Positions 16,458 through 44,285 of a stretch of DNA of 64,000 bases are shown piece by piece. The stretch covers positions 17,958 through 81,957 of the forward strand of contig JBMCHT010000003.1 in NCBI GenBank assembly GCA_048617235.1, read 5' to 3'. Both the position numbers and the translations under genes were made by a program. The notes below the pieces were generated by a model that saw only the letters and a list, made by a program, of their open reading frames with translations, made no database searches and had not been told where the DNA came from. The number at the start of each line of letters is the position of its first letter. The stretch's first letter is position 1. The DNA comes from Patescibacteria group bacterium (GTDB lineage: Bacteria > Patescibacteriota > Minisyncoccia > Phycocordibacterales > XYD1-FULL-46-19).

Positions 16458-17750
16458 TTAATACTCTCGCATGGTAATCTGAGCATCGATTTTTTTCACT
16501 AAATCCAAGGTTACAGACACCACAATCAATAATCCGGTTCCTCCTAAAGCCAAAGCGGTTTGACCGGTAACCGATTGCATAATAAATGGTAGAACGGCAA
16601 TAAAACCCAAAAAGACAGCCCCAATAAAAGTTAAACGAGCTACAATACCGGCTATATAGTTAGCAGTGGTTTGACCGGGACGGATTCCCGGTACATAAGC
16701 TCCGCTTTTTTGTAAATTGGTAGCCACTTTATTGGGCTCAAAAGTAATAGCCGAATAAAAGAAAGTAAAAGCAAAAACCAAAGCAAAATAGAAAGCCCCA
16801 TAAAGCCACATATTATTAACAAACATTTCCAGCCACATTACTACTGTTTGAGCCACAGAACTAGAGGCCTCCCCCAATAAATTAACCAACATTTGAGGAA
16901 ATAATAAAATAGATAAAGCGAAAATTATTGGCATTACTCCGGCATTATTAAGTCTAATCGGCAAATAAGTGGCAATACCGGCAGCTGATCTTTGCCCTCT
17001 GATACTTCTAGAATAAGTAATAGGGATAGGTCTTTCGGCTTCAGTTACAGCCACCACTCCGCCAACAATCGCCACCGCCGCTACCGTAAAGCCAAGATAT
17101 ATAGGTAATTGAGCCGGATCAAAAGTGATAATTACTTGATAAATAGTACTGGGTAAAGAAGCTACAATACCGGCAAAAATTAAAATAGAAACACCATTAC
17201 CTATACCGTATTGCGAAATTTGTTCTCCCAACCACATTAACAATATGGAGCCGGCGGCCACAATAATCACACTGGAGATTAATTGCCAACCGACTAAATC
17301 CGGTAAAAAACCTTCTCTCTGCAAAAGAACCAATAAACCGACCGCTTGCAATATAGCCAAGGGAACTGTTAATAACCTAGAATATTGATTAAATTTTTGG
17401 CGACCTGCTTCACCTTCTTCATGATACATCTCCTTCATTCGCGATGACACCACAGTCGATAGTTGCATAATAATGGCAGCGGTAATAAAAGGTCCCACCC
17501 CCAACATCATAATAGACAAATTGGATAAACCGCCACCGGAAAAAATATTCAACAAACCGAAGAATTGATTATCTAAAATATTAACCAAGACCGCCCTATC
17601 CACTCCCGGAATGGGAATAGTGGCTCCTACTCGAAATAAAGTTAAAATTCCAACAATAAACAATAAACGGTTACGCAAGCCGGAATCTCTTCCAATCATT
17701 TTTAATTTTAAAAACAAAGCTGACATAATTTTATAGTTTAATTTCTCCAC
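16458..17750 (-). CDS. secY: Preprotein translocase subunit SecY
   Basis: 10-TM SecY architecture. 430 aa. Follows rplO. Confidence 0.95.
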   Translation of the reverse strand: MEKLNYKIMSALFLKLKMIGRDSGLRNRLLFIVGILTLFRVGATIPIPGVDRAVLVNILDNQFFGLLNIFSGGGLSNLSIMMLGVGPFITAAIIMQLSTVVSSRMKEMYHEEGEAGRQKFNQYSRLLTVPLAILQAVGLLVLLQREGFLPDLVGWQLISSVIIVAAGSILLMWLGEQISQYGIGNGVSILIFAGIVASLPSTIYQVIITFDPAQLPIYLGFTVAAVAIVGGVVAVTEAERPIPITYSRSIRGQRSAAGIATYLPIRLNNAGVMPIIFALSILLFPQMLVNLLGEASSSVAQTVVMWLEMFVNNMWLYGAFYFALVFAFTFFYSAITFEPNKVATNLQKSGAYVPGIRPGQTTANYIAGIVARLTFIGAVFLGFIAVLPFIMQSVTGQTALALGGTGLLIVVSVTLDLVKKIDAQITMREY

Positions 17751-18165
17751 CGGCTTTTTCTATCACCTGACGAGCTGTATCCGATAATAAACAATTGGAA
17801 ACCACTACTGAATGACCCAGATGGCCTTTACCTAAGATTTTAACCACCGGTAAAACACCGGAACGCTTTCTAATTAAACCGGCTCGAAATAGGGTTTTAG
17901 GACTAACCTGTTCTCCAGCTTTAAAGGTTTTATTAATCTCCGATAAATTAATCGGAGTAGCAGTAAGTCGATGACTAGAAAATTTATAACCACGGTGTTT
18001 AGGTAATTTTTTAATCGTATCCCTCATTTCCGGTCTAATTTTTCGACCGGCTCTGGCTTTTTGTCCTTTCATTCCCTTACCGGATGTTTTACCACGAGTA
18101 CCACCTCGGCCTATTTGCCTGGAAACAGCTCTTTTAGTGTTACGTTTTATTTGATGAATTTGCAT
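17731..18165 (-). CDS. rplO: 50S ribosomal protein L15
   Basis: Gly/Arg-rich N-terminus (GRGGTRGKTSGKGMKGQKARAG). 144 aa. Confidence 0.92.
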   Translation of the reverse strand: MQIHQIKRNTKRAVSRQIGRGGTRGKTSGKGMKGQKARAGRKIRPEMRDTIKKLPKHRGYKFSSHRLTATPINLSEINKTFKAGEQVSPKTLFRAGLIRKRSGVLPVVKILGKGHLGHSVVVSNCLLSDTARQVIEKAGGEIKL

Positions 18166-18202
18166 AAGACTGAAATTTTATCTTTAAATAAGAATAATGA
18201 AT

Positions 18203-18730
18203 CTATTTCTCTACCACTTTATTATTTTCTTTAAATTCAGACAAGGCCAAAATTGCCACTTGAGCATTATTAAGTTTGTTTTTGGTTCGTGAAATAAACT
18301 TACCATTGACATCATTAATACCGGCCAAATGTAAAACCGTTCTCAAAGAACTACCGGCAATCAAACCCCGACCGGCTGCCGGCTGTAAATAAACTTTGGA
18401 AGATTTAAATTTAGCCGAGACTTCATGAGGAATAGAACGATCTTCTGTTAATTTAAGTTTGATCACATTTTTTTGAGCTTTGGTAATAGCTTTGGCAATA
18501 GCTGCCGCTGTATCTCCGGCTTTACCAACTCCCACTCCCACTCGGCCTCGTTTATCTCCCACTATAACGGTAGCTGAAAAACTAAAACGACGACCACCGG
18601 CCATCACTCTGGTGACTCGACGAATATCTACCACCTGATGATCAAATTCAGATTTTTCCATCTGGCGACGACCGGTCTGCCGACGTCCGGTTTTATTTAT
18701 TTTTGTTTTTTCAGCTGTTTGTGTAGACAT
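18203..18730 (-). CDS. rpsE: 30S ribosomal protein S5
   Basis: dsRBD plus S5 C-domain. 175 aa. No L30 gene lies between it and rplO. Confidence 0.93.
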   Translation of the reverse strand: MSTQTAEKTKINKTGRRQTGRRQMEKSEFDHQVVDIRRVTRVMAGGRRFSFSATVIVGDKRGRVGVGVGKAGDTAAAIAKAITKAQKNVIKLKLTEDRSIPHEVSAKFKSSKVYLQPAAGRGLIAGSSLRTVLHLAGINDVNGKFISRTKNKLNNAQVAILALSEFKENNKVVEK

Positions 18731-18745
18731 AAATATTTAAATTAT

Positions 18746-19111
18746 TTAAAATTTCAATCCGGCTTGACGAGCTCCATCGGCTACCGCTTTAACTTGACCG
18801 GCATAACGATAACCACTTCTATCAAAAACTACGGCAGTAATTTTTTTCTCTTTAGCTGCTTCAGCTAGAGATTGACCAACTATAAAAGCTTTCTCTACTC
18901 TGTTTTTTTTATTTTGATTATCTTCAAATATTTTCTTGCCGGAAATACCGACTAAAGTTTGACCGGTAACATCATCCACTAAAAAAGCATTGATATAACG
19001 ATTAGAACGAAAAACAGCCAAGCGGGGTTTAGTAATTACTCCTTTAACTTTAGCCCGCACTCGACGATGGCGTAGTTCTCTGATAGGAGTTTTGGAAATT
19101 GAAGTAGACAT
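18746..19111 (-). CDS. rplR: 50S ribosomal protein L18
   Basis: 121 aa. RHRRVR N-terminus. Conserved position. Confidence 0.92.
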   Translation of the reverse strand: MSTSISKTPIRELRHRRVRAKVKGVITKPRLAVFRSNRYINAFLVDDVTGQTLVGISGKKIFEDNQNKKNRVEKAFIVGQSLAEAAKEKKITAVVFDRSGYRYAGQVKAVADGARQAGLKF

Positions 19112-19125
19112 AGAAATAAAATTAA

Positions 19126-19662
19126 TTAAGCAACAGACTTCTTACCTTGTTTTCTTAAAACGACCTCATCAATATAACGAATTCCTTTTCCTTTATAAGG
19201 CTCGGTTTTCTTTTGGATTCTGATTAAAGAAGCAAAACCGCCAACCGATTCTTTATTATAACCGGAAACGGTAATGTTATTCTTTTCTACCGTTACTTCC
19301 AAATCTGCCGGAATTTTTAAACGCACCTGATGAGAAAAACCCACATCCAAAACCAAATGCCCGTCAGTAACATTTATTTTATAACCTATTCCTTCTATTA
19401 CTAATTTTTTAACGAAGCCTTCAGTTACACCAACAACCATATTTTTTAAATGTGAACCATAAGTACCCCACAAATTCTTCGCTAAAATAGAATCAGCAAC
19501 CGGCACTAAAGTGATTTGATTATCATTAATCTTAATATCTATCACATCTTTAAAAATACGACTGATTTTACCCCGAGGACCAGAAACAATAACTTCCCCT
19601 CCGTTTTTATCCACGGTTACTCCTTGAGGAATTTCTATAATTTGTTTACCAATTCTAGACAT
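19126..19662 (-). CDS. rplF: 50S ribosomal protein L6
   Basis: MSRIGKQIIEIPQGV... start. 178 aa. Confidence 0.93.
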   Translation of the reverse strand: MSRIGKQIIEIPQGVTVDKNGGEVIVSGPRGKISRIFKDVIDIKINDNQITLVPVADSILAKNLWGTYGSHLKNMVVGVTEGFVKKLVIEGIGYKINVTDGHLVLDVGFSHQVRLKIPADLEVTVEKNNITVSGYNKESVGGFASLIRIQKKTEPYKGKGIRYIDEVVLRKQGKKSVA

Positions 19663-19673
19663 AAAAATTTAAA

Positions 19674-20078
19674 TTACCAAATTTGAAATATTACTTCACC
19701 ACCCAATTTTTGTTTTCGAGCCTCTTCTTCAGCCATTAATCCTTTAGAAGTAGATACAACTACTAATCCATAACCCTGACGGGTCGGCCTTAGTTCAGAT
19801 ACTTTCTTGTAAATTCGACGGGAAGGTTTTGATATTTTCTTAATTTGACTTAATCTGGCTTGAGGTCGAGTTCCGGGTACAGCCGGTAAATAAGAAATAT
19901 AACAAGATAAATAAGGACGATTACGTCGCATTTTTTTAGTAATATTTTCCAAATAACCTTTAGAAGCCAAAACTTTGATTACCTCGTGTTTAAATTTAGA
20001 ATAAGGGAAAACCACTTCCTCCCGCCCGGTCAAAGCGGTATTCTTTATTTGAACTAACATGTCTGCTATTGGATCCAT
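19674..20078 (-). CDS. rpsH: 30S ribosomal protein S8
   Basis: MDPIADMLVQIKNT start typical of uS8. 134 aa. Confidence 0.93.
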   Translation of the reverse strand: MDPIADMLVQIKNTALTGREEVVFPYSKFKHEVIKVLASKGYLENITKKMRRNRPYLSCYISYLPAVPGTRPQARLSQIKKISKPSRRIYKKVSELRPTRQGYGLVVVSTSKGLMAEEEARKQKLGGEVIFQIW

Positions 20079-20088
20079 AATAATTTAA

Positions 20089-20274
20089 TTACCAAGAAGA
20101 TTTTCTAACACCGGGAATTTGGCCTTGGTTAGCAAATTCCCTAAAACAAATTCGACATAAACCAAAATCCCTCATATAACCATGTTTACGCCCACAATGA
20201 AAACAACGATTAATCGTCCGAGATTTAAATTTCGGATTTTTCTGAGCTCTGGCAATAACGGATTTTTTGGCCAT
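20089..20274 (-). CDS. rpsN: 30S ribosomal protein S14 type Z (zinc-binding)
   Basis: 61 aa with a CxxC...CxxC pattern ([20 protein letters not shown]). Confidence 0.93.
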
Positions 20275-20387
20275 ATTTTATATAAAAATAAAAATAATTA
20301 AAATAAAAGGCTTAGGTTAAGCCAGTGCTTATCCTATCAATTATACAGGATGATGTCAAACTATTGTCCTTACTTTAAAAACTTATT

Positions 20388-20945
20388 TTAAGCAACTTTT
20401 TTGGTTTCTTTAAATGGAAAATCCAAATGTTTAAACAAAACTTCTCCGGATTGCCTATCGGTGGCTGAAGTAATAACCGTCACCGCCAAACCAAAAACAT
20501 CTTTTAAATCTTCATCGGATGTCTCCGGAAAAACCACATGCTCTTTAACAGCTAAAGTTAAATTACCCATTTCGTCAATAGATTTTAAAGTATAACCCTT
20601 AAAATCCCGAGAACGAGGAATAGCCACATTTATTAACTTATCCAAAAAGGCATACATCCGATTTCCACGCAAAGTAACGGATTGACCAATGATATCTCCT
20701 TGTCTTAATTTAAAGGAAGCAATTGATTGTTTAGCCGGTCGAGGAGATGGCTTTTGGCCGGTTATTTTAGATAAACGATCAGCCACCAATTCATTCTTCT
20801 TTTTTTTATCAACCGCTTTGCCAGTACCGGAGCTGACTACCACTTTAACCAATCTCGGAACAGCCAAGCTGTTGGTTAAACCCAATTCTTTTTTTAAATC
20901 CGGTAAAACTCTTTGGTATTTATTTTTTAAATTTTCAATAGCCAT
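20388..20945 (-). CDS. rplE: 50S ribosomal protein L5
   Basis: 185 aa. Conserved uL5 core. Position between rpsN and rplX. Confidence 0.92.
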   Translation of the reverse strand: MAIENLKNKYQRVLPDLKKELGLTNSLAVPRLVKVVVSSGTGKAVDKKKKNELVADRLSKITGQKPSPRPAKQSIASFKLRQGDIIGQSVTLRGNRMYAFLDKLINVAIPRSRDFKGYTLKSIDEMGNLTLAVKEHVVFPETSDEDLKDVFGLAVTVITSATDRQSGEVLFKHLDFPFKETKKVA

Positions 20946-20953
20946 AATTTATT

Positions 20954-21271
20954 TTATTTAAAAACTTTTTCACATTTAACACAAGTTCTAATTTTATCTC
21001 CGTTTTTATCTTCAGTCTTTTTAATCCTAACTCCTCGATTACAATTTGAACAGAAAAGTAATACATTAGAATAGGCTACCGGTAAAGAAATGGATAAAAC
21101 TTGTCCGGCTTCTCCCTTTTGCCTGGATTTAACTCTTTTGGTTCTAACGTTAACACCCTCAATCACCAAGCGATTATTTTCTCTGTCCACTTTAGTCACT
21201 TGACCGGTTTTACCTTTATCTTTACCGGCAATAATATAAACTTTATCTTTGGTTTTAATATTCATTTTCAT
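20954..21271 (-). CDS. rplX: 50S ribosomal protein L24 with C-terminal zinc-ribbon extension
   Basis: KOW region (KVYIIAGKDKGKTGQV) followed by CSNCNRG...CVKCEK. Confidence 0.9.
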   Translation of the reverse strand: MKMNIKTKDKVYIIAGKDKGKTGQVTKVDRENNRLVIEGVNVRTKRVKSRQKGEAGQVLSISLPVAYSNVLLFCSNCNRGVRIKKTEDKNGDKIRTCVKCEKVFK

Positions 21272-21280
21272 AATATTTAT

Positions 21281-21652
21281 TTATAGGACTTCAGGAGCCA
21301 ATGAGATTATTTTTTGATAACCCGATTCCGCCAATTCTCTGGGAATAGGCCCGAAAATACGACCACCCCTCGGTTCTTTTTTACCTTTTTCCAAAATAAC
21401 TACCGCATTCTCATCAAAACTGATATAAGAACCGTCTTTTCGCCTATAAGGCTGTTTTTGCCTAACCACTATTGCCTGAACCACTTCTTTTTTCTTTAAA
21501 GCTTTACGCGGTTCAGCCACCTGAACGGCCAAAACCACCAAATCTCCGATGCGAGCATATCGACGCTTGGAACCGCCAAGTACCTTAAATACCCGACCGA
21601 TTTTAGCTCCGGTATTATCTGTTATTTTTACTATGGTTTGCGGTTGAATCAT
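21281..21652 (-). CDS. rplN: 50S ribosomal protein L14
   Basis: MIQPQTIVKITDNTGAK start. 123 aa. Confidence 0.95.
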   Translation of the reverse strand: MIQPQTIVKITDNTGAKIGRVFKVLGGSKRRYARIGDLVVLAVQVAEPRKALKKKEVVQAIVVRQKQPYRRKDGSYISFDENAVVILEKGKKEPRGGRIFGPIPRELAESGYQKIISLAPEVL

Positions 21653-21660
21653 AATCTTTA

Positions 21661-21942
21661 TTAAATAATCTGACCATTAACAGCTATAACTTTAAAACTC
21701 TTATCTTTGGAAAACGGTTTGGTTTCCATAATGGTTACTTTGTCCCCTAACTGACAAGCTCTATTTTCCAAATGAGCCTTGTAACGTTTATTTTTGTTAA
21801 TGAATTTACCATAACGAACATGTTTAATTCTTTTGGTTACTTCCACCACCACGGTTTTATCCATTTTATCTGAAACCACCACTCCGAATAATTTTCTCGG
21901 CTTAGCAATCTTTTGTTTAACTTGTGAATTATTTTCAGACAT
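21661..21942 (-). CDS. rpsQ: 30S ribosomal protein S17
   Basis: 93 aa, OB-fold. Position after rpmC. Confidence 0.92.
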   Translation of the reverse strand: MSENNSQVKQKIAKPRKLFGVVVSDKMDKTVVVEVTKRIKHVRYGKFINKNKRYKAHLENRACQLGDKVTIMETKPFSKDKSFKVIAVNGQII

Positions 21943-21964
21943 ATTAATTTTATATTTGATTTTT

Positions 21965-22162
21965 CTATTGATCTTTTGTTGTTAGATTTAATTTAGTCAA
22001 CAACCGAGCAATTTCTTTTTTTAAATCACGACCAGCCTTAGTGTTAGTTGTTTTTCCTCCGGCTAAAGCTCCTTTTAACTTAGCCAATTCTTTTCGTTTT
22101 TCTTCAATTGCTTTCTTTAAATCAATTGAAGTCATTTTTGAAATATCCTTTTTTTTAGCCAT
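21965..22162 (-). CDS. rpmC: 50S ribosomal protein L29
   Basis: 65-aa helical protein between rplP and rpsQ. Confidence 0.88.
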   Translation of the reverse strand: MAKKKDISKMTSIDLKKAIEEKRKELAKLKGALAGGKTTNTKAGRDLKKEIARLLTKLNLTTKDQ

Positions 22163-22205
22163 AGTCTTAATATCTTTATCACGAATTTAAAAATTTGTCC
22201 ATTAT

Positions 22206-22634
22206 TTAATTACCGGCTCGACTGACAATCTTGGTTTTAACCGGTAATTTAGCTCCGGCTTTACGCAAAGCTTCTCGAGACACTTCTTCACTTAAGCCGT
22301 CTAATTCAAATATAATTCGACCGGGCAAAACCTCAGCTTCATAACCCTGAAGATCGCCTTTGCCTTTACCCATACCCACCTCTGCCGGTTTAGTGGTAAA
22401 AGGTCGATCCGGGAATATCCTAATCCATAATTTTCCTTTCTTTTGCATTTGCCTGGCAATGGTTTTTCGCGCCGCTTCTATTTGATTAGAACGAATTCTG
22501 CCATGAGTCTGCGCTTTCAAACCAAAAGAACCGAAACCTAAACTAACCCCCCTAGATTCCACCCTTTTTTTATTGGGATTGGTTCTACCTGTTTGCCATT
22601 TACGATATTTTACTTTTTTGGGAAATAAAGCCAT
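22206..22634 (-). CDS. rplP: 50S ribosomal protein L16
   Basis: 142 aa. Conserved uL16 core. Confidence 0.93.
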   Translation of the reverse strand: MALFPKKVKYRKWQTGRTNPNKKRVESRGVSLGFGSFGLKAQTHGRIRSNQIEAARKTIARQMQKKGKLWIRIFPDRPFTTKPAEVGMGKGKGDLQGYEAEVLPGRIIFELDGLSEEVSREALRKAGAKLPVKTKIVSRAGN

Positions 22635-22640
22635 ATTATT

Positions 22641-23303
22641 TTATTTATCTTCTTTATCAAAAATTTCTCCTCGATAAATCCAAACTTTTACTCCAATTAC
22701 TCCATAAGTGGTAAAAGCTTTTTCACGAGCAAAATCTATATCTGCTCTTAGGGTTTGTAAAGGAATTCGTCCATCCTTAACCATTTCTTTCCGGCTCATA
22801 TCCGCCCCACCCAATCGACCGGAAACCGAAATTTTTACTCCTTCAACTCTGGATTGAGCCATAGATTTTTCCAAAACTTGTTTCATCACTCGTCTGAAAG
22901 GCATTCTTTTTTCCAAACCTTCAGCTACCATATAGGCTACAATAGCGGCATGGCTTTCCGGATCTTTAACTTCTTCTATATCTAATTTAACTGTTTTAGT
23001 AACATCATTATTTTTCTTTAATATTTTTTGAATATCACCTTTCAATTTAGTCACCCCGTCACCATTGCGTCCAATAACCATTCCCGGTCTGGAAGTTTTA
23101 ATTATCAACCTGATTTCATTTTCATCTCTTTCAATATCCACCGTAACTACATAAAACCCACGTAATTTTTTTCCTAAAAATTCTCTCAACGCAATATCAG
23201 CTTGTAAAAAATTTTGGTATTGACCTTTTTTACCAAACCAACGCGATTTCCAATCACGGATAATACCTAAACGATGCGAATAAGGATGAACTGTATGAGT
23301 CAT
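22641..23303 (-). CDS. rpsC: 30S ribosomal protein S3
   Basis: KH domain plus S3 C-domain. 220 aa. Confidence 0.95.
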   Translation of the reverse strand: MTHTVHPYSHRLGIIRDWKSRWFGKKGQYQNFLQADIALREFLGKKLRGFYVVTVDIERDENEIRLIIKTSRPGMVIGRNGDGVTKLKGDIQKILKKNNDVTKTVKLDIEEVKDPESHAAIVAYMVAEGLEKRMPFRRVMKQVLEKSMAQSRVEGVKISVSGRLGGADMSRKEMVKDGRIPLQTLRADIDFAREKAFTTYGVIGVKVWIYRGEIFDKEDK

Positions 23304-23320
23304 AATAATATTATTTAAAT

Positions 23321-23662
23321 TTACTTAGAATGATTAACCGTATCTAATTCAACCTGGATTCGACTGGCCCGTTTACGAATCAAAAAAGCTCGTCCTCTGG
23401 CTCTTGGTCTCATTCTTTTTAAAGTCAAACCTTTGTCTACCCTAATATTTTTCACTATCAAGTCATCTTTAGACAAACTGGCATCTTTATTTTTGGCATT
23501 AGCGGCCGCACTACTTATTAATTTACCTATAGAAAGACTGGCTCTTTTTGGTAAAAATTGCAATTCGGCCAAAGCTCGAGAAACAGTTTTACCCTTAACC
23601 AAATCCGTTACCAAACGAACTTTGCGAGGGGATTGTCTATATTGGTTAAGTTGAGCTTTCAT
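23321..23662 (-). CDS. rplV: 50S ribosomal protein L22
   Basis: 113 aa. Conserved position. Confidence 0.92.
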   Translation of the reverse strand: MKAQLNQYRQSPRKVRLVTDLVKGKTVSRALAELQFLPKRASLSIGKLISSAAANAKNKDASLSKDDLIVKNIRVDKGLTLKRMRPRARGRAFLIRKRASRIQVELDTVNHSK

Positions 23663-23667
23663 AATAG

Positions 23668-24003
23668 TTATTTTTTATCAGCAGTTTTAGCGGCTCGAGC
23701 AGCGGCAATTTCTGCTTCCTTTTTCTTCATCTCCAATTCTTTTTGCATTTTACCACCATGCCTGATAAATTTACGAGTCGGAGAAAATTCACCCAAACGA
23801 TGACCTACCATTTCTTCGGTAATTAGAACCTCTATATGGTGCCGACCATTATGGACACCAAAAGTAAAACCGACCATTTCCGGACTAATTTGACTGCTAC
23901 GAGCCCAAGTTTTAATCACTCCGGTATCATTTGGCTTCTTATCGGTTATTTTCTTCAATAATTTAGGATCTATATACGGTCCTTTTTTAAGTGAACGGGC
24001 CAT
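23668..24003 (-). CDS. rpsS: 30S ribosomal protein S19
   Basis: [12 protein letters not shown] start. 111 aa with a C-terminal Lys/Ala-rich tail. Confidence 0.93.
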
Positions 24004-24148
24004 GAAAATTTAATCAGATTAGTTATTGTACTAGTTATATAATTAAAAAGGCTCTAAATACAGCCAGAGCCAAGGCTAATGTTATCAGATAAAGACAAAA
24101 TGTCAACCAAAGTAACATTTTTTTAACTCTAAAAAACCAAGATTGACA

Positions 24149-24988
24149 TTATTTACGCTTCTTGGTCTTTCGTCTGGAGACAATTAACCGATTAGAATAT
24201 TTTTTAGCCGGACGAGTTTTGGAACCACCGGTAATTTTACCATGTTTGGTCTTAGGTCGTTTAGTTCCTCGACCTTGACGGCCTTCTCCGCCACCATAAG
24301 GATGATCTACCGGGTTCATGGCACTACCTCGAACTTTAGGTCTGATACCCAGCCATCGGGATCTTCCGGCTTTTCCTTTATTAACTTGTTTATATTCTTC
24401 ATTAGAGACCGCTCCAACAGTTACCCAAGCTTTTTCGTTTACTTTTCTAATCTCTCCCGAAGGCATCTTAATTAAAGAATAACCGGCGTCATTAGATAAA
24501 ACCTCAGCATAAGTACCGGCGGAGCGTACTAATTTAGCTCCTCCTTCCGGTTTTAATTCTATATTATAAATCATAGTACCAGCCACAGCTTTGTTTAAAG
24601 GGATACTATTACCGGGCTTTATTTTTGCTTTAGCCGAAACTATAATTTCATCTCCCATTTTAACAGTTTTAGGAGCTAAAATATAACGACGTTCTCCATC
24701 GGCATAACAAACTAAAGCAATAAAACCGGAACGATTAGGATCATACTCAATCGATTCCACTTTAGCCGGTATTTCTTTCTTATTATATGAAAAATCAACC
24801 AAACGATAACGACGTTTATGTCCCCCACCTCTATGATGAACAGTGATTCTTCCTCCACTGTTTCGTCCAACATGACGCTTACGTCCAAAAACCAAGGGTT
24901 TATGCGGTTTAGAAGTGGTTAAATTTTTTTTATATGAAACCGTAGACATTTGACGTCGAGACGGTGTTGTCGGCTTGTATTTTTTCAT
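24149..24988 (-). CDS. rplB: 50S ribosomal protein L2
   Basis: 279 aa. Conserved uL2 C-terminal region. A 145-bp gap separates it from rpsS. Confidence 0.95.
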   Translation of the reverse strand: MKKYKPTTPSRRQMSTVSYKKNLTTSKPHKPLVFGRKRHVGRNSGGRITVHHRGGGHKRRYRLVDFSYNKKEIPAKVESIEYDPNRSGFIALVCYADGERRYILAPKTVKMGDEIIVSAKAKIKPGNSIPLNKAVAGTMIYNIELKPEGGAKLVRSAGTYAEVLSNDAGYSLIKMPSGEIRKVNEKAWVTVGAVSNEEYKQVNKGKAGRSRWLGIRPKVRGSAMNPVDHPYGGGEGRQGRGTKRPKTKHGKITGGSKTRPAKKYSNRLIVSRRKTKKRK

Positions 24989-25005
24989 AAATCAATAATC
25001 TATTT

Positions 25006-25320
25006 TTAAATAAAATCTATTTTTTGACCAACCGGAACATAAATCATGGCCTTCTTATAACCCGAACGGCGTCCACGGCGTCCACGTATTTTTTCCCATC
25101 GAGGACTATTTTTTACAATATTAACCTTAGTTGGATTTATTTTATATTTTTTGAAAAAAGCCTCACTAATCTCAATTTTATTAACTTCCATAGGCACATC
25201 AAAAGTATAAATTGGAGCCGGGGCGGTAACCGACTCGGCTAAACCGACACTTTTCTCGGTAATTCGAGGTTTTATCAATCTCAATTCAGTTTTTATGGTT
25301 TGTTTACCTAATTTAGACAT
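25006..25320 (-). CDS. rplW: 50S ribosomal protein L23
   Basis: 104 aa. Position between rplD and rplB. Confidence 0.9.
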   Translation of the reverse strand: MSKLGKQTIKTELRLIKPRITEKSVGLAESVTAPAPIYTFDVPMEVNKIEISEAFFKKYKINPTKVNIVKNSPRWEKIRGRRGRRSGYKKAMIYVPVGQKIDFI

Positions 25321-25330
25321 AATATTAAAA

Positions 25331-26038
25331 CTATTTTACCTCTAATGGAAGAGGGGAATGACTATTACCTAGAATTTTTTGAAATCGCCCCCTAATTATT
25401 TCAAAAACAATTTCCGGATCAGTTATTATTAAATATTTGTAAGTAGCCACCAACAAAGGATCAATATTTCTGGCTTCTTCCACTTTAATTGTGGGTAAAC
25501 TTTTAACACTTTTTACTAAATTGTTATTTAAATCCGGAGTAATCACTAAAGCTCTTTTCCCTTTGTCATAAATTAACTCCGAAAAACCATCTACTACTGA
25601 CCAATTTTTAAAAGATTCTTTAACTGTTTTAATTGACGGAGATTCTAACTTCCAAGCTTCCACCAATAATAAATTATTAGTTTTAGCTTTAGTAGACATT
25701 AAAGCCAAAAGGGCTTTAAATTTCATCTTTCTATTTATTTTTTGACTATATTTTCTTTCCGGTCGAGGGCCATGAGTAACCCCTCCGCCAATCCAAATTG
25801 GAGACCGAATTGAACCATGACGAGCTCGACCGGTTCCTTTCTGCCTCCAAGGTTTACGGCCACCACCGGACACCTCACTTCTGTCTTTAACTGCAACTGT
25901 TTCTTGGCGTTGATTAGCTCTTTCAGCTGTTATTACTTGATGAACCAAATCTCCATTCCAATCAACATTAAATATTTCCCCCGGTAAATCCAACTGACCG
26001 ATTTCTTTACCTGAATGATTGTATAACGAAGATTGCAT
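25331..26038 (-). CDS. rplD: 50S ribosomal protein L4
   Basis: 235 aa. Conserved uL4 loop region. Confidence 0.92.
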   Translation of the reverse strand: MQSSLYNHSGKEIGQLDLPGEIFNVDWNGDLVHQVITAERANQRQETVAVKDRSEVSGGGRKPWRQKGTGRARHGSIRSPIWIGGGVTHGPRPERKYSQKINRKMKFKALLALMSTKAKTNNLLLVEAWKLESPSIKTVKESFKNWSVVDGFSELIYDKGKRALVITPDLNNNLVKSVKSLPTIKVEEARNIDPLLVATYKYLIITDPEIVFEIIRGRFQKILGNSHSPLPLEVK

Positions 26039-26120
26039 GTTTATTTTAATTTGGAAAAACCGCCTCGGCGGTCATCCTTAAATTATACTTTCAATTACTA
26101 ACATAAAAAAATCAGCCTGT

Positions 26121-26750
26121 CTAATTTGCTTTTATTTCCACTATTGAACCGCGACGACCGGGAACAGCTCCGGAGATATAGAGTAAATTATTACCCTCGT
26201 CTACCTGAACTACTCGCAAACCTTTAACGGTTTTGCGTTTTCCACCCATCCGACCGGCCATTTTAGTTCCTTTAAAAACTTTTTGAGGACCGGTAGCTCC
26301 AATAGATCCGGGCTCTCTTTCGGAATGTTTCTGACCATGAGTTCGTGGGCCACCGGCAAAATTATACCTCTTAACCACACCTTGAAAACCCTTACCTTTG
26401 GTTAAACCGGATATTTCCACTTCATCACCTGAATTAAAAACTGAAACACTAACTTCTTGACCCGGTTCCGCTTCCACCGCTTTAGCTTTGGTTCTAAATT
26501 CCTTTAAAACTTGAAATCCATTCTCAGCCGCCGGCCAATTCTTTTTAATTTGACCTTGGAGAGCCTTGGACATCTTAGCTAAAGGTTTTTGACCATAACC
26601 AACATAAACACCATCATAACCATCTTTAGCTACGTTTTTTACTTCCAAAACTCGAACCGGTCCGGCGGCTATTACCGTTACCGGTAAAACCCGACCATCT
26701 TGATCGAAAATTTGAGTCATCTCTTTTTTTTGTCCCAGAATATATTTCAT
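26121..26750 (-). CDS. rplC: 50S ribosomal protein L3
   Basis: 209 aa. Conserved uL3 core. Confidence 0.93.
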   Translation of the reverse strand: MKYILGQKKEMTQIFDQDGRVLPVTVIAAGPVRVLEVKNVAKDGYDGVYVGYGQKPLAKMSKALQGQIKKNWPAAENGFQVLKEFRTKAKAVEAEPGQEVSVSVFNSGDEVEISGLTKGKGFQGVVKRYNFAGGPRTHGQKHSEREPGSIGATGPQKVFKGTKMAGRMGGKRKTVKGLRVVQVDEGNNLLYISGAVPGRRGSIVEIKAN

Positions 26751-26771
26751 GTTTTTAAGTATTTGGTCTTC

Positions 26772-27107
26772 CTATACCATCTTAACATCTATATTAACCC
26801 CCGAAGGTAAGTTCAAATTAGTCAAACTGTCCACTATTTTAGGAGAAGGGGCTATAATATCTATTAAACGCTTATGAACTCTCATTTCAAACTGTTCGCG
26901 CGAATCTTTATCTACAAAAGAACTGCGATTGACTGTATATTTTTTTATTTCCGTTGGTAAAGGTACCGGACCATTCAATTGACCATCATAACGTAAAGCC
27001 GTATCCACTATTTGCTTAACGCTGGAATCCAAAACTTTATTTTCATAAGCCGATACCCTAATACGTAATTTGGGGATTTCTGTTTGTTCAACGGATTTTT
27101 TAGCCAT
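26772..27107 (-). CDS. rpsJ: 30S ribosomal protein S10
   Basis: 111 aa. Heads the S10 operon directly downstream of tuf. Confidence 0.93.
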
Positions 27108-27130
27108 AATATAATTGCTTCAAAGCCGAT

Positions 27131-28324
27131 TTAGGCCACTATTTTAGTTACCACTCCGGCTCCGACCGTTTTACCACCTTCACGAATAGCAAATCGCTGA
27201 CGATCTTCCAAAGCTACTGGAGCTACCAATTTAACTTTAAAAGTAACTGTATCTCCAGGCATAACCATCTTAACATCATCAGCTAAAGTTACTTCTCCGG
27301 TTACATCGGTCGTTCTAATATAAAACTGCGGTTTATAACCGGTAAAGAACGGAGTATGACGACCACCTTCTTCCTTAGTTAAAATATAAACCTCAGCTTC
27401 AAATTCAGTGTGCGGAGTAACCGAACCCGGTTTGGCTAAAACTTGACCACGAGTAATATCGTCTTTTTTCAAACCTCGAAGTAAAATTCCGGCATTGTCT
27501 CCAGCCATTCCTTCATCTAGAGACTTATTAAACATTTCAATTCCGGTAACGGTAGTTTTAGAAGTGTCTTTCATTCCGATGATATCCACTTCTTCTCCGA
27601 CCTTAACAGCTCCTCTTTCAATTCTACCGGTAACCACTGTTCCTCGACCCTCAATGGAGAAAACATCTTCCACCGGCATCAAGAAAGGCTTATCAGTATC
27701 TCTTTCCGGTTCAGGAATATATTCATCCATAGCCTCAGCTAATTCCAAAACTTTTTTAGCTTGCTCATCATCAGCCGAAGTTGCCTCTAAAGCTTTAAGG
27801 GCTGATCCACGAATAACCGGAGCATTTTTACCATCGTATTCATATTTATCTAACAGTTCTCTAACCTCTTCCTCTACCAAATCAATCAATTCCGGATCAT
27901 CCACCATATCCACTTTATTTAAGAAAACAATAATTTTAGGCACTCCTACTTGGCGAGCCAACAATATATGCTCTCTGGTTTGAGGCATTAAACCATCGGT
28001 AGCCGCTACCACAATTATGGCACCATCCATTTGAGCGGCTCCGGTAATCATATTTTTAATGTAATCGGCGTGTCCGGGAGCATCAACATGAGCATAATGC
28101 CTCTTTTCGGTCTCATACTCATTGTGAGACAAAGCAATAGTAATACCGCGATCTCGTTCTTCGGGAGCGTTGTCAATATCATTAACTGCCCTCATCTTCA
28201 CTTTATTACCGGCCAAATTCAAAACATGCAAAATAGCGGCGGTTAAAGTAGTTTTTCCATGATCCACATGTCCAATGGTTCCGACATTAACATGAGATTT
28301 GGAACGATCAAATTTATCTGCCAT
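27131..28324 (-). CDS. tuf: Elongation factor Tu
   Basis: [27 protein letters not shown]-domain motifs. 397 aa. Confidence 0.97.
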
Positions 28325-28515
28325 AATAATTTTTAAATTAGCTTTAATAATTTATAACCTTTTAATTAAATAAATATAAATAAAAATTTAAGGTTTACTA
28401 TTTACTAGAATTCAAACCCAATAGCCATCTCTAAAAAAGCAAGCCTTAAACCACTTCTATTATTTATAGTTAAAACATACCAATATTATACTTAAAAACA
28501 ATATTAGTCAAGATT

Positions 28516-29616
28516 TTAATTTAAAAATTGATCTCGGCAGACACTTTCTACCTGATTCAAACAAGTTTCTTGACGAGTACGACAATTTGAAAATTGCCCC
28601 TCATGATCATTCTCGGCCTGTTCCAAACAACGATCTAAACTCCTATCCAAACTATTTTGGCAATTATTCAATCTGATTCTTAAAATATAAGAACGGACAC
28701 CAGCCACCGTTTGACATAAAACAACTCTAGCTCGACAAGCTAAACGAGCTAAACCACGGCGATCTTCACACCTGGCAGCTATAGTCTGACAACGATTATA
28801 AATTGAATCAATCCGCTCGGCAAAAACTTGGCAACTTTCTTTATTTTGTTCAAAAACTTGCTGACACTGAGCTTTTCTATCCGGAATATTGTCAACACAA
28901 ATATTAAATTCTTGTAGACAATCTTCTTCTCTTTGAGTTAAACAATTTTCAAAACCTTCATCATCGGTCGATTCTTCTGCTTCTGTATCATCATCTGCCG
29001 GTTCTTCAATTTCTTCTTCGTCTTCGTCATCATCTGCCGGTTCTTCAATTTCTTCTTCGTCTTCGTCATCATTTACCGGTTCTTCAATTAATTCTTCATC
29101 TTCGTCATCATCTGCCGGTTCTTCAATTTCTTCTTCGTCGTCTTCACTACCACCTATAATTTCTTCAAGATCTTCAAGGTCTTCTTCAAAATCGGAACGA
29201 ATTCCTATCAACTTATCAATCCCCTCTTGTAATAATAAACCCACTAAACCCAAATCAGCCGCTTGTCCAATTAAAGCCTTCAAATATGAATCCAATAAAA
29301 GAGCATTTCTTTTAGAATGATTAGCAAAGACTACAGCCCAGCCATAATCTTCCGACTGATACTTTCTAACAGCCTCATTTAAACTATGACGAGAGACTTC
29401 AAATTTATCTGTAATTTCTCTGACAGACACTTCCATTAATTCTCCATTCTCATAAATATCACCAGAAGTTATTTCGTCCAACAAACCTTCTACTTCCACT
29501 AATTTACTTTCCGCCTCTCTAATAGCCTCCAGGGCTTCCTCTTTAGCTGAAACAGCCTCTGCCGTTCCAAATAAAAATAAAAAGACGAACAAAAAACCAA
29601 AAATGTTTTTAACCAT
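28516..29616 (-). CDS. Secreted hypothetical protein: signal peptide, helical N-domain, four 13-aa acidic repeats, C-terminal domain with 14 Cys
   Basis: Start set at MVKNIFGFLFVFLFLFGTAEAVSA (signal peptide). Repeats EEIEEPADDDEDE. Cys-rich tail CLTQREEDC...C. No family recognised. Sits between fusA and tuf. Confidence 0.6.
   Translation of the reverse strand: MVKNIFGFLFVFLFLFGTAEAVSAKEEALEAIREAESKLVEVEGLLDEITSGDIYENGELMEVSVREITDKFEVSRHSLNEAVRKYQSEDYGWAVVFANHSKRNALLLDSYLKALIGQAADLGLVGLLLQEGIDKLIGIRSDFEEDLEDLEEIIGGSEDDEEEIEEPADDDEDEELIEEPVNDDEDEEEIEEPADDDEDEEEIEEPADDDTEAEESTDDEGFENCLTQREEDCLQEFNICVDNIPDRKAQCQQVFEQNKESCQVFAERIDSIYNRCQTIAARCEDRRGLARLACRARVVLCQTVAGVRSYILRIRLNNCQNSLDRSLDRCLEQAENDHEGQFSNCRTRQETCLNQVESVCRDQFLN
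28988..29146. repeat. Four tandem copies of a 39-bp in-frame coding repeat (acidic 13-aa unit)
   Basis: TCATCATCTGCCGGTTCTTCAATTTCTTCTTCGTCTTCG repeated with minor variants. Confidence 0.85.
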
Positions 29617-29658
29617 CCCCTTATTATACATTATAATAATAAAATCAGGCAAATTATT

Positions 29659-31806
29659 TTACTGTCTAGATTCTATAATGGTCTGAGCCACATTTTGAGG
29701 AATAATAGCATATTCCAAAAACTCCATTGTGAAATTACCTCGACCTTCAGTTGTTGATCGCAAAGTAGTAACATAACCAAACATTTCGGACAAAGGCACT
29801 TTAGCAGTTATAACTTTCAAGTCACCTCTATCTTCCATTGCCTCTATTTGTCCTCTTTTAGAGCTTAAATAACCATTAACATCACCCATGAATTTTTCAG
29901 GCACTACCACCTCTACTTTCATAATCGGCTCCAACAATACCGGTTTGGCCAACTTAACTGCATCCTGAATGGCCAAAGAACCAGCCATTTTAAAGGCCAT
30001 CTCCGAGGAATCCACATCATGAAAAGAGCCGTCAAATAATTCACAAGAAATATCCTCTACTGTAAAACCGGCCAAAACTCCTCGTTCTAAACCTTCTCGA
30101 ATTCCTTTTTCTACTGCCGGAATATATTCTTGAGGAATAATTCCTCCTTTAATGGAATTAATAAATTCAAACCTATCTTCTCTTTTAACATTTTTAGCTT
30201 TAACTTCTTCCGGTTTAACGGTCTTGTCCAACGGAGCCACTCTGAGTTTAACATGGCCATACTGACCCCGACCGCCGGACTGTTTAATATATTTACTTTC
30301 AGCTTCTGCAGTAGAAGTAATAGTTTCTTTATAAGCCACTTGGGGATTACCGATATTAGCTTCCACATTAAATTCGCGCTTCATTCTATCAACCAAAATA
30401 TCCAAATGTAATTCTCCCATACCGGAAATAATAGTCTCCATGGTCTCCGGGTCCGACTGAACTTTAAAAGTTGGATCCTCGGCAGCTAATTTTCTTAAAG
30501 CCAAACCCATTTTTTCTTGATCAGCTTTGGTTTTCGGCTCTATCCTCAAAGAAACCACCGGTTCGGAAAATTCTATTTGATCCAAAACAATCGGATTATT
30601 TTCATCACATAAAGTATGCGAAGTAGCCACATTTTTTAATCCAACTACAGCGGCTATTTCTCCGGCATAGACCGTCTTAACCTCTTCTCGGTGATTGGCA
30701 TGCATCCGCACTATTCGGCCAACTCTTTCTTTAGAACCGGTAGTGGCGTTAAAGACATAACTACCAGCCTCCAACATCCCTGAATATACCCTGGTGTAAG
30801 CCAGCTGACCAACATAAGGATCGCTTTGCAGCTTAAAAACCAAAGCAGCCATTGGTTCATCATTACTATGACGACGCTCTATTACTTCTTCGGTTTTGGG
30901 ATTTTTACCCTTAACCGGCGCTAAATCCAAAGGTGAAGGCAAATAATCTACTACACCATCCAACAACAACTGCACTCCTTTGTTTTTTAAAGCTGAACCG
31001 CAAAAAACCGGAACCAATTCGTTATTAATAACCGCCTTTCTCAAAGCTATCTTTAACTCATCTATAGCCGGCTCATCTCCGGTTAAAAATCTATCCATTA
31101 AAGCTTCATCTGTTTCCACTATTCTTTCTATTAACTCCGCTCGGTATTTTTCAACCGTTTCTTTGTATTCAGCCGGGATTTCTTCTTCTATTATTTTATT
31201 TCCCATATCCCCTTCAAACTTATAAGCTTTATGATTCAATAAATCTATTACTCCTTCGTGTTTATCATCTTCACCTAAAGGAACTTGCATTCTAATAGCT
31301 TTTTTAGTCAAACGACTTAAAATAGTACCGAAAGAATGTTCAAAACTGGCTCCAATTCTATCCAATTTATTTATAAAACAAATGCGAGGCACCTGGTATT
31401 TATCCGCTTGTCGCCAAACGGTTTCCGATTGAGGCTCCACTCCGGCCACCCCGTCAAAAACCACCACTCCACCGTCTAAAACCTTCAAGGATCTTTCAAC
31501 TTCAGCGGTAAAATCTACATGACCTGGAGTATCAATAATATTTAATCGATACTTATTATCTTTATCGTCTTTATTATATTTAGTCGGCACCCAAAAAGCA
31601 GTAGTAGCCGCCGAAGTAATGGTAATTCCTCTCTCTTGTTCTTGTTCCATCCAATCCATAACCGCTTCTCCTTCATGAACCTCTCCAATTTTATGAGAAA
31701 TACCGGTATAATAAAGAACTCTTTCACTGGTAGTGGTTTTGCCGGCATCAATGTGGGCAATAATCCCAATATTACGCACTTTTTCCAGCGGATAATCTCT
31801 AGCCAT
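29659..31806 (-). CDS. fusA: Elongation factor G
   Basis: [18 protein letters not shown]-domain motifs. 715 aa. Confidence 0.97.
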
Positions 31807-31854
31807 AATATTTAATAAATATTAATTAATTATTAGTATTAATAAAAAACAAAA

Positions 31855-32343
31855 TTATTTTTTCTTTTTCTTACCGGTCCAAGCAAAATGGGCAAAAGCT
31901 CGGTTAGCCTCGGCCATCTTATGAACCATTTCTTTCTTTTTAACCGCTTCTCCTTCATTATTATAAGCGGACACTATTTCATCAGCCAACCTAATTTCCA
32001 TCTTAGTACCGGATTTGGCTCTGGCACTTTTTATTAGCCAACGTAAAGCCAATGATAGTTGCCTGGCCGGTCTAACCTCATGCGGTACTTGGTAATTAGC
32101 TCCACCAATTCGACGAGAACGGATTTCCATCTGGGGAGATATATTTTTAATGGTTTCTTTAAAAACCTCTAAAGGTTCTTGACCGGTTTTTTCCTTGACC
32201 AAACCAAAAGCGGAATAAACCACTCGTTGAGCCACGGTTTTTTTACCTCGCTCCATTACATAATTAATTAATTTGGAGACCTCTAAAGAGCCGTGTTGGG
32301 AATCGGCAGTTAAACGATTAGTCTTTTTTACCGGTCGACGCAT
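31855..32343 (-). CDS. rpsG: 30S ribosomal protein S7
   Basis: 162 aa. Conserved uS7 core. Position between rpsL and fusA. Confidence 0.93.
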   Translation of the reverse strand: MRRPVKKTNRLTADSQHGSLEVSKLINYVMERGKKTVAQRVVYSAFGLVKEKTGQEPLEVFKETIKNISPQMEIRSRRIGGANYQVPHEVRPARQLSLALRWLIKSARAKSGTKMEIRLADEIVSAYNNEGEAVKKKEMVHKMAEANRAFAHFAWTGKKKKK

Positions 32344-32367
32344 AAATATTACTGATATATATTAAAA

Positions 32368-32781
32368 TTAAGCCTTAGGCTTCTTAGCTCCATAAAGACT
32401 ACGACCTTGGCGACGCTTTTCCACTCCGGTAGTATCCAAAACTCCACGAACGACAGTATAACGAACTCCGGGTAAGTCTTTAACTCGACCTCCTCTCAAT
32501 AAAACCACTGAGTGTTCTTGTAAATTATGTCCCTCGCCCGGAATATAGGCAGTTACCTCCATACCATTAGTTAAACGCACTCTGGCAATTTTTCTCATAG
32601 CAGAGTTAGGTTTCTTGGGCGTAGTGGTTTTAACTTGAAGACAAACCCCTCGTTTAAACGGAGAAGGATAATGAGAAGGTTTATTCTTTTTATTATTAAA
32701 ACCCATAGCTAAAGCCACGGTCTTGGATTTTTTGACCACTTTTTTTCTTCCTTTTCGAACCAATTGATTAATTGTAGGCAT
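32368..32781 (-). CDS. rpsL: 30S ribosomal protein S12
   Basis: [12 protein letters not shown] start. 137 aa. Confidence 0.97.
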
Positions 32782-42805: not shown

Positions 42806-43280
42806 CTATTTCCACCTCTTTTAAACCAGCTCGTTCATGCTCTAAAATAAGTCGCCAGCGTACCCCTTGATTATCCTCAACCGGCCAAAGATAAAATTCA
42901 TTCACTGTTATTTTGGACGATATGAGTGAATCGGAAACATCGGTGGAGGTTTGCCATAACAGGTCACCTTCGGCTGTAGCTTGAAATTCTTCTTGACCCT
43001 CTGAGGTTATTAAAGTTAAACGACCGAAATCGGTTTCCAAATCACTATTGGTTAAATCATAACTACCGGCTTGTTTAATTGTTCTGGTTAATTGCTCAGA
43101 AACGGCTATTACCGTATCATTTAACTCAGCTCGAGCTTTAAAATCTGCCGTTAAACGCCAAATTAAAAGAAAAACAGAAACAAAAACAACCATCAATAAT
43201 CCCAACAAAGCAACATAAACCATCATCTCTATTAAAGTAAAACCGTTGGTTCTTTTTTTATTAAATAAATATTTAAACAT
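42783..43280 (-). CDS. Type IV prepilin-like protein (minor pilin)
   Basis: Leader MFKYLFNKKRTNG, then FTLIEMM (F+1, E+5) and a hydrophobic helix. Start set at M32 of the ORF-track ORF. Confidence 0.7.
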   Translation of the reverse strand: MFKYLFNKKRTNGFTLIEMMVYVALLGLLMVVFVSVFLLIWRLTADFKARAELNDTVIAVSEQLTRTIKQAGSYDLTNSDLETDFGRLTLITSEGQEEFQATAEGDLLWQTSTDVSDSLISSKITVNEFYLWPVEDNQGVRWRLILEHERAGLKEVEIVGAGIFR

Positions 43281-43284
43281 AAAA

Positions 43285-43791: not shown

Positions 43792-43816
43792 TATTAAAAA
43801 TATTTTACCATAATCT

Positions 43817-44281: not shown

Positions 44282-44285
44282 AAAA

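Follow-up and report, generated by a model that had tools for sequence, protein, structure and literature searches.

A lineage-restricted exported protein with a predicted disulfide-locked helical rod, encoded between fusA and tuf in a Patescibacterium

In most bacteria, rpsL, rpsG, fusA and tuf lie next to each other in the str operon. In the 64,000-nucleotide (nt) stretch of Patescibacteria DNA considered here, referred to as a whole as the window, an open reading frame (ORF) that starts with MVKNIF, called X in the following, separates fusA from tuf. What does X encode, and does its place in this operon matter? Its NCBI name is 'hypothetical protein ACOCU8_02360 [Patescibacteria group bacterium]' (MFW5853448.1). 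A description based on the window alone, the original prediction, had proposed a secreted protein with acidic repeats and a cysteine-rich C-terminal domain; it was largely right, but erred on the upstream spacer, on the notation of the cysteine spacing and on the premise that fusA and tuf are normally contiguous. We consider it reasonably probable that X is a lineage-restricted exported protein made up of a head, a tether and a disulfide-locked rod, that it has a structural, spacer or adhesive role in the envelope, and that its link to the str operon is positional.

The case for the rod starts from the cysteines. As originally counted, there are 14 in the C-terminal domain of X, all within residues 225-360. 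They make up 10.3% of this stretch, whereas the remaining ORFs of the window have 0.39% cysteine, a 26-fold enrichment. Expressed as differences in position, they follow one another at 8, 7, 11, 11, 14 and 7, then at a central 11, and then at 7, 18, 11, 15, 7 and 8. The recurring spacing had been written as C-x7-C and C-x11-C, which is imprecise since these numbers count the step from one cysteine to the next; written conventionally, the gaps are C-x6-C and C-x10-C (four of each) and C-x7-C (two), plus x13, x14 and x17. The series is mirror-symmetric save for two offsets of +4 at helix breaks: pairing the cysteines from the outermost inwards gives position sums of 585, 585, 585, 581, 581, 577 and 577. 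Chance would produce such mirror symmetry with P = 4.5e-5 if positions are drawn at random and with P = 0.0035 if the gaps are permuted.

Homologues of X are few and distant. A word-indexed protein search with the full protein returned only the self match, the acidic repeat having probably dominated the candidate list. When 1.84 billion cluster representatives were searched exhaustively with phmmer, the N- and C-terminal domains of X being joined and the acidic linker left out, six distant homologues were retrieved (P0002-P0007; E = 3e-14 to 1.5e-4), with 24-38% identity to X and 30-38% over the matched stretches, which brings the family to seven clusters. All seven members share a common layout of signal peptide, helical domain of about 130 residues, low-complexity linker and cysteine-rich tail, and the number of cysteines in the C-domain is even in every case. 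The cysteine series of X recurs in P0002, P0004 and P0007, where variation is confined to the central gap (10-14) and to one gap of the second arm, arm B (15 or 18). Searches of Pfam, NCBIfam and PHROGs with X and all family members gave sub-threshold noise only (GntR, MarR, CDC45 and the acidic regions of sigma factors), and a PDB sequence profile search with X found nothing below E = 0.26. By homology, X appears to belong to no described family.

The cysteine spacing fits helices. Each difference falls within about 80 degrees of whole helical turns, most of them within 20-40, and the cysteines of each helix are thus found on one face (R = 0.83-0.98), with the polar residues mostly opposite. 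AlphaFold2, given the single sequence, predicted an all-helical structure with a predicted local distance difference test (pLDDT) score of 57-90 in block means over the C-domain, lowest near residues 291-320. Given the seven-sequence alignment, it placed helices at residues 219-242, 247-283 and 288-365 and a turn at 284-287, near the centre of the cysteine symmetry; the C-domain then scored 76-96 in 10-residue block means, and 85-96 outside residues 291-320. Since cysteines 7-11 residues apart in one helix cannot bond each other, pairing would have to be interhelical, and symmetry and model together suggest a nested set of disulfides: C225-C360, C233-C352, C240-C345, C251-C330, C262-C319, C276-C301 and C283-C294. 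P0005, with 10 cysteines at differences of 8, 7, 11 and 11, then 25, and then 11, 18, 7 and 8, fits the same ladder minus the two rungs nearest the turn, as if cysteines were lost only as whole mirrored pairs; this reading rests on the gap pattern, MAFFT having put the fifth cysteine (C256) in the C294 column, with a serine in the C301 column.

The remainder of X agrees with an exported protein. Its N-terminus reads by inspection as MVK / NIFGFLFVFLFLFG / TAEA followed by VS, that is, an n-region containing lysine, a hydrophobic core of 14 residues and an A-E-A cleavage motif; the signal peptide originally proposed is therefore well founded, and X has the membership features of Sec-exported proteins processed by signal peptidase I. 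The six homologues have an equivalent, namely a hydrophobic N-terminus followed by small-x-small residues, again by inspection. No twin arginine occurs in the n-region of X or of any homologue. Nor is there a lipobox ([LVI][ASTVI][GAS]C) in X, which has no cysteine before residue 225. P0004 and P0006 do have cysteines in their signal regions, but with F or L in front of them these form no lipobox. X as a lipoprotein or a sortase substrate was rejected, the motifs not being present. An alternative TTG start at 29652, 36 nt upstream of the ATG, would extend X to 378 residues and is used by one public annotation, but it is the ATG that aligns with the start methionines of the homologues.

The helical N-domain, or head, which had also been anticipated, is the sole part of X that is detectable by sequence in all homologues, and AlphaFold2 likewise predicts helices there. 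In the family alignment I32, V63, S64, E67, K71, L79, A82, A98, N104, L107, Y111 and L127 are invariant, and with this alignment the helices at 65-87 and 91-115 were modelled at a pLDDT of about 80-84, with low confidence past residue 119. The same model gives pLDDT <50 to residues 132-217, which are read as disordered. The linker segment 144-218 carries a net charge of about -50 out of about -65 for the mature protein. The four acidic repeats of 39 bp or 13 residues were recovered by Tandem Repeats Finder. However, this acidity is not a family trait. Linker length and composition vary widely among the homologues, from acidic or Pro-rich (P0005-P0007) to rich in Thr, Asn, Ser, Gly and Asp (P0002, P0003) or short and Thr-rich (P0004), and none of the six homologous genes has a comparable tandem repeat. 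Since no homologue has a long tandem repeat in its linker, that of X appears to be a recent, local expansion, and since acidic character is not conserved, cation binding, one of the roles originally proposed, is unlikely as the core function.

Taken together, these features suggest the following picture. X would cross the membrane by the Sec pathway and be cut after Ala21, leaving a mature protein of about 39 kDa. The helical head of about 120-130 residues would probably be the binding part. Behind it, a disordered spacer may evolve freely, extremely acidic in this genome partly via the recent fourfold duplication of 39 bp. The C-terminal part of about 145 residues would fold into a two-helix antiparallel hairpin with the cysteine stripe as its core seam, and the mirror-placed cysteines of the two arms would face their partners and form seven nested interhelical disulfides, a 'cystine ladder'. 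Such a ladder would make a stiff rod, about 9-10 nm long given arms of 65-78 residues, which should resist proteases and denaturation. The likeliest function of such a protein would be to act as a structural, spacer or adhesive element in the envelope or at the surface of this ultra-small Patescibacterium. A bolder version holds that the C-domain is a previously undescribed module, a coiled coil of about 10 nm with a seven-rung cystine-ladder core, serving as an extracellular strut for a binding head, for example in host attachment, and that its supply is tied to growth by the fixed place between fusA and tuf. This version we regard as possible but doubtful.

Helical hairpins held by disulfides are known from other systems, the defining motifs of which X lacks. 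The alpha-hairpinins are plant defence peptides of less than 10 kDa with the pattern CX3C-Xn-CX3C, that is, four cysteines forming two nested bonds (PMC7191063). Their outer-outer and inner-inner disulfides follow the same logic that the mirror spacing of X implies. In contrast, the domain of X has about 145 residues (about 17 kDa), 14 cysteines, seven inferred bonds and spacings of 7, 8, 11, 14, 15 and 18, and X is bacterial, strongly acidic, fused to a linker and a head and without sequence homology to these peptides; its smallest spacing is C-x6-C, and C-x3-C does not occur. Proteins of the CHCH or twin-CX9C type are eukaryotic, reside in the mitochondrial intermembrane space and have two C-x9-C motifs on facing helices, joined by two bonds. 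Like the prediction for X, they are helix-turn-helix structures with interhelical disulfides between facing cysteine stripes, but C-x9-C is not among the 13 cysteine gaps of X. The hinge protein of the cytochrome bc1 complex (subunit 6) combines an acidic stretch with a cysteine hairpin; its match to X is insignificant (E = 8-9.5). In the copper storage (Csp) proteins, a bundle of four helices binds 13-20 Cu(I); the proteins form tetramers, and Csp1 is exported with a Tat signal (PMC7558416). Csp1 and Csp3 resemble X in being helical with many cysteines lining the core, whereas the signal of X is Sec-type, its predicted fold is a two-arm hairpin, its cysteines are mirrored one to one and it does not match the family models, none of the seven members matching a Csp model in Pfam or NCBIfam.

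Among the best structural matches to the model of X are the receptor-binding domain of colicins E3 and E9, the adaptor hairpins of HlyD and EmrA, and the chemoreceptor Tsr, all of them two-helix antiparallel rods that act as spacers or reach across a distance. These matches are generic and not significant (Foldseek E >= 0.35), there is no homology, and to our knowledge none of these hairpin domains is stapled by cysteines. A further fold resemblance, to DUF4398 (PF14346-type; PA2901, PDB 4fm3), is equally generic, the part of X that aligns being unreported and small helical bundles matching many things; Pfam and the PDB sequence profiles gave no match of X to this family, and in Pfam none of the seven family members matched DUF4398 at E <= 1. 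The design of X is thus best described as a disulfide-stapled antiparallel alpha-hairpin that appears to be extended to seven rungs with heptad- or hendecad-type spacing and fused to a tether and a head. No disulfide-stapled alpha-hairpin that we know of has even a third as many staples as the seven rungs would provide. If the ladder is real, it would offer protein designers a simple hyper-stable rod scaffold and would show how a rigid structure for export can be built by an organism with a reduced genome and little cysteine in its proteins. Patescibacteria rely on touching other cells, and few of their surface proteins are understood; as a conserved and probably well-expressed exported protein of a small clade, X would then be a reasonable candidate for the cell-contact interface.

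Several points weigh against this picture of a surface-exposed, disulfide-locked rod. The pairing is derived from sequence symmetry and from an AlphaFold2 model based on a shallow alignment (seven sequences; predicted template-modelling score, pTM, 0.36), and Foldseek fold searches produced no significant specific match, the best having E = 0.35. The 64-kb window shows no evident thiol-oxidising enzyme, be it DsbA-like, VKOR-like or an exported protein with CxxC. Anaerobic life is common among Patescibacteria, and the cysteines could stay as thiols in an anaerobe. X has no lipobox, sortase signal or C-terminal transmembrane segment, which leaves its retention at the surface without explanation. 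It has no annotated homologue and no co-conserved partner gene. Finally, two homologues are interrupted in the cysteine domain, one (L086:1003-1935) by an in-frame TAA where relatives have Lys, along with a Cys-to-Trp change, the other (L087:1032-1966) by a frameshift and a TAG. In both, the cysteine spacing carries on past the interruption in the downstream frame; the interruptions could be either low-coverage sequencing errors or the decay of a dispensable gene.

Is X at home in this genome? Its G+C content (GC) is 0.371 compared to 0.381 for the window, and that at third codon positions (GC3), 0.229, is close to that of the ribosomal protein genes, so the original statement that X is not shifted in composition and looks native was correct. 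A second assembly, GCA_964402165.1, the sole other copy available for comparing repeat number, is 100% identical across 7.1 kb of the locus, the 39-bp repeat included. In all seven homologous loci (six distinct proteins) an X homologue directly follows fusA, with tuf next where the contig extends; the gene was thus not met elsewhere beside an intact fusA-tuf pair, the situation that would have made X a merely local insertion. The EF-G encoded upstream is 73-81% identical to the fusA product of the window, and at L083 and L085 tuf lies directly downstream of X and is 87-89% identical to that of the window. L083 also shows the wider gene order of the window: ComEC, a metallo-beta-lactamase fold protein, an M50 peptidase, S12, S7, EF-G, X, EF-Tu and S10 onward. 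In a neighbour-joining tree of the C-terminal 293 residues of EF-G, drawn without bootstrap values, the seven X-bearing loci form one clade, and its sister, L088, has contiguous fusA and tuf with a gap of 156 bp. The simplest history would be a single insertion of X into the fusA-tuf junction in the ancestor of this small clade, followed by vertical inheritance in place. X has diverged far more than its neighbours (24-38% identity versus 73-89% for fusA and tuf).

X is therefore a real, native and lineage-specific gene for an exported protein, and not a recent transfer, since its composition is native and its position is kept across a clade in which EF-G is 73-81% identical. Recent horizontal transfer was rejected on these grounds. 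X was likewise rejected as a frameshifted fragment of a known gene, there being no known homologue and the gene being intact in five lineages, and as phage or mobile-element cargo, with no PHROG family, no phage match (tblastn of X against 50,697 phage records gave none) and native GC and GC3.

The position itself was compared with that in other genomes by measuring the fusA-tuf gap at loci that contain the nearest EF-G genes, taken from genomes (one for each species) and from metagenomes. When a tuf at least 73% identical to that of the window is used as a crude proxy for Patescibacteria-like loci, the fusA-tuf gap in these 25 loci has a median of 870 bp and a maximum of 5 kb, and exceeds 400 bp in 20; in the 67 loci of all other bacteria the median is 113 bp, and only five exceed 400 bp (Mann-Whitney P = 3e-11). 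The contiguity expected of the str operon is thus the rule in most bacteria but not in this phylum, and the special significance attached to its being split by X falls away, the 20 wide junctions being filled with unrelated genes. Their occupants include pilin-like and other secreted proteins, toxin-antitoxin genes of the HicAB-like and MazF-like kinds, a response regulator, rplJ-rplL and pyr (pyrimidine-synthesis) genes. These are unrelated to one another, and none matched in a profile search with the X family, which found no new family member in the scanned loci. The occupants share with X the slot and the orientation, and several have signal-peptide or pilin-like N-termini, but the proteins are unrelated to X. 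On this survey, genes have been inserted repeatedly at the fusA-tuf junction in Patescibacteria, and X appears to be one lineage's stable occupant of it. Where str/S10 synteny is used for binning or for operon inference, such recurrent insertions matter.

Many other Patescibacteria (L010, L011, L014, L017, L018, L048, L100, L103, L104 and L117) have a small conserved ORF of about 80-160 aa directly upstream of tuf. Its N-terminus is like 'KKTGDRIIVFD...YVVM..YE.L', its tail is acidic, and it shows a likeness to the Phd/YefM antitoxin fold (PF02604; at E = 9e-6 the match falls short of the Pfam cut-off). A toxin partner is not apparent in the fusA-tuf junction that holds the ORF.

Transcription signals, all of them consensus predictions, bear on whether X shares the expression of fusA. 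Two AT-rich spacers of about 190 bp had been reported around X; that between X and tuf stands, at 191 bp and a GC of 0.19, whereas the gap between fusA and X is only 42 nt long. The terminator scan of the window found no terminator in this gap, and the promoter scan found there a promoter-like site (10/12 matches) with its -10 hexamer ending 6 nt before the ATG of X. L083 and L085 are similar, with gaps of 37-52 nt, no terminator and TATAAT 6-7 nt before the ATG; this placement in the three genomes suggests a leaderless transcript. AAGGGG abuts the ATG of X, and X is the sole gene of its region to have such a G-rich element there: a Shine-Dalgarno sequence is missing from almost all ribosomal protein, fusA and tuf genes (window 16458..32781), the upstream regions of which are AT-rich and usually end in ...ATT before the ATG. 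In L081, L082, L086 and L087, the gap of 88-132 nt holds a long, mostly G+C-rich hairpin, a T-run and then a TATAAT-type -10 element, and in three of the four a TG stands before a -10-like hexamer; the whole gaps fold at -25 to -39 kcal/mol.

Every locus of the family has a promoter-like site ahead of X and four relatives have a strong terminator, which weakens the operon linkage that had been supposed. Read-through from fusA into X is plausible in this genome, since no terminator is predicted there, but is probably blocked in at least four relatives by the terminator and is not a conserved property of the family. Downstream, the spacers between X and tuf at L082:2303-2400, L083:6990-7097 and L085:4845-4951 share a promoter-like site, TTGAC-N17-TATCAT or TAGTAT, followed before tuf by a small conserved hairpin, ACGC-N5-GCGT, and GTTTTTT; this could be a leader or attenuator of tuf or a terminator of X. 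The spacer of the window is arranged differently. It has a promoter-like site of its own, and neither this spacer nor the fusA-X gap contains a tRNA or an Rfam family. The link of X to the str operon would thus be positional rather than functional, as the junction often holds insertions, X has its own promoter-like site and relatives have terminators.

How do other explanations fare against an exported structural or adhesive rod? The cysteines could serve metals instead, a reduced stripe binding Cu(I), Zn or Cd, possibly in a four-helix bundle formed by two paired hairpins, much as in Csp1, with the acidic linker attracting cations. The extreme enrichment of cysteine and its confinement to one helical face would suit such a store, as would the strong acidity of mature X and the lack of a thiol oxidase in the 64-kb window, and there is precedent in the exported Csp1 and in the binding of Cu(I) by cysteines that line the four-helix-bundle core of Csp proteins (PMC7558416). 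We nevertheless hold it to be unlikely: X matches neither the Csp family nor any metal-binding model of Pfam or NCBIfam, the signal of its family is Sec-type without the twin arginine whereas Csp1 uses Tat, AlphaFold2 shows a two-arm hairpin rather than a four-helix bundle, one-to-one mirror pairing and a loss of cysteines by whole rungs only, from 14 to 10, agree with covalent pairs, and the acidic linker is not conserved. Less likely still is a secreted antagonist, that is, a toxin, inhibitor or antimicrobial built as a giant alpha-hairpinin or colicin-type hairpin and directed against a host or competitors. Alpha-hairpinins do combine an antiparallel helix-loop-helix and nested Cys1-Cys4 and Cys2-Cys3 bonds with defence activities (PMC7191063), the coiled-coil hairpin of colicin E9 was the top Foldseek match, and X is secreted and diverges fast (24-38% versus 73-81% for the adjacent EF-G). 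But a net charge of about -65 is unlike that of cationic antimicrobial peptides, the CX3C motif is missing, and there is no catalytic or pore-forming domain, no PHROG or phage match and no adjacent immunity-like gene, the neighbours always being fusA and tuf; moreover, it is the N-domain of X that is conserved, and the gene occupies a stable core position in single copy.

The position might itself be functional, with X co-expressed with the str and S10 operons so as to follow growth rate, or acting as a buffer for the transcription or translation of tuf. The place right after fusA is indeed invariant in all recovered loci, the fusA-X gaps of 37-52 nt in the window, L083 and L085 have no predicted terminator, and none is clear between X and the tuf promoter-like site. 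Yet this too seems improbable, a little more so than a metal store and a little less so than an antagonist, given the strong hairpins and T-runs after fusA in four relatives, the TATAAT-type site before X in all, the promoter-like site of tuf itself, and an exported product with no evident link to translation; a junction that holds many unrelated genes is a permissive site, and together with vertical inheritance this explains the synteny. The least credible option is that X is a decaying or non-functional ORF, or that it arose by misassembly of a low-complexity tract. The premature stop or frameshift in the L086 and L087 homologues, the tiny size of the family, with seven clusters in 1.84 billion representatives, and the absence of any annotated domain would point that way, but five lineages have intact ORFs with the same architecture and cysteine spacing at about 25-35% identity, two assemblies are identical down to the repeat, AlphaFold2 is highly confident in the C-domain and the codon composition is native. 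The coordinates of X, its parts and its neighbours, which are all co-oriented from rpsL to rpsJ and the S10 operon, are given in Table 1.

Table 1. Positions in the window of X, its domains, the flanking regions and the neighbouring genes
Feature	Position	Strand	Description or basis
X ORF	28516..29616	minus	366 aa from ATG
Signal peptide, residues 1-21	29554..29616	minus	MVKNIFGFLFVFLFLFGTAEA then VS; Sec/signal peptidase I type, by inspection
Helical N-domain (head), residues 22 to ~154	29155..29553	minus	phmmer matches map to query residues ~3-155
Super-acidic linker, residues 155-218, predicted disordered	28963..29154	minus	low pLDDT, charge
39-bp tandem repeat	28988..29146	minus	Tandem Repeats Finder; 4.1 copies, 90% matches, EEIEEPADDDEDE-type 13-aa units
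Cys-rich C-domain, residues 219-366	28519..28962	minus	14 Cys; AlphaFold2 helical hairpin
Promoter-like site TTGCCT-18-TATAAT in fusA-X gap	29623..29652	minus	promoter scan, 10/12 matches
X-tuf spacer	28325..28515	minus	191 bp, GC 0.19, AT-rich
Promoter-like site TTGACT-17-TAATAT in X-tuf spacer	28483..28511	minus	promoter scan
rpsL	32368..32781	minus	ORF list
rpsG	31855..32343	minus	ORF list
fusA (EF-G, 715 aa), upstream neighbour of X	29659..31806	minus	ORF list; Pfam EF-G domains on identical locus L168
tuf (EF-Tu, 397 aa), downstream neighbour of X	27131..28324	minus	ORF list; followed by rpsJ and the S10 operon

Elsewhere in the window, three further ORFs are strongly acidic (D+E 0.20-0.33), at 50136..50552 (minus), 54507..54848 (plus) and 62421..63992 (minus). 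Two of them have a hydrophobic N-terminal segment, and in Pfam they have weak DUF matches at most. Proteins that are acidic and either exported or anchored may be typical of this organism in general. A run of ORFs at 41042..47257 (minus) has type IV pilin-like N-termini, for example GFSLLELIIVIVIL and GWSLLEVLIGVTL, and the large ORFs beside it may belong to pilus assembly, both observations being taken from the ORF list only.

A signal-peptide protein of 383 aa encoded at 12916..14067 (minus; region 11851..14067) matches the FadL/TodX outer-membrane beta-barrel family (PF03349, E = 4.8e-27) and, in the PDB, TbuX and CymD (E ~1e-8), a surprising match for a contig of Patescibacteria. The GC is 0.48-0.49 in this gene and in the adjacent methyltransferase gene compared to 0.38 for the window, as might be expected of an island gained by horizontal transfer or of a chimeric join. 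Finally, the window contains a tmRNA gene at 5102..5483 (minus) with the tag peptide ANLSQKVKSVVSPYFTPAYALA, and one tRNA-Gly and two tRNA-Pro genes at 59.6-61.0 kb.

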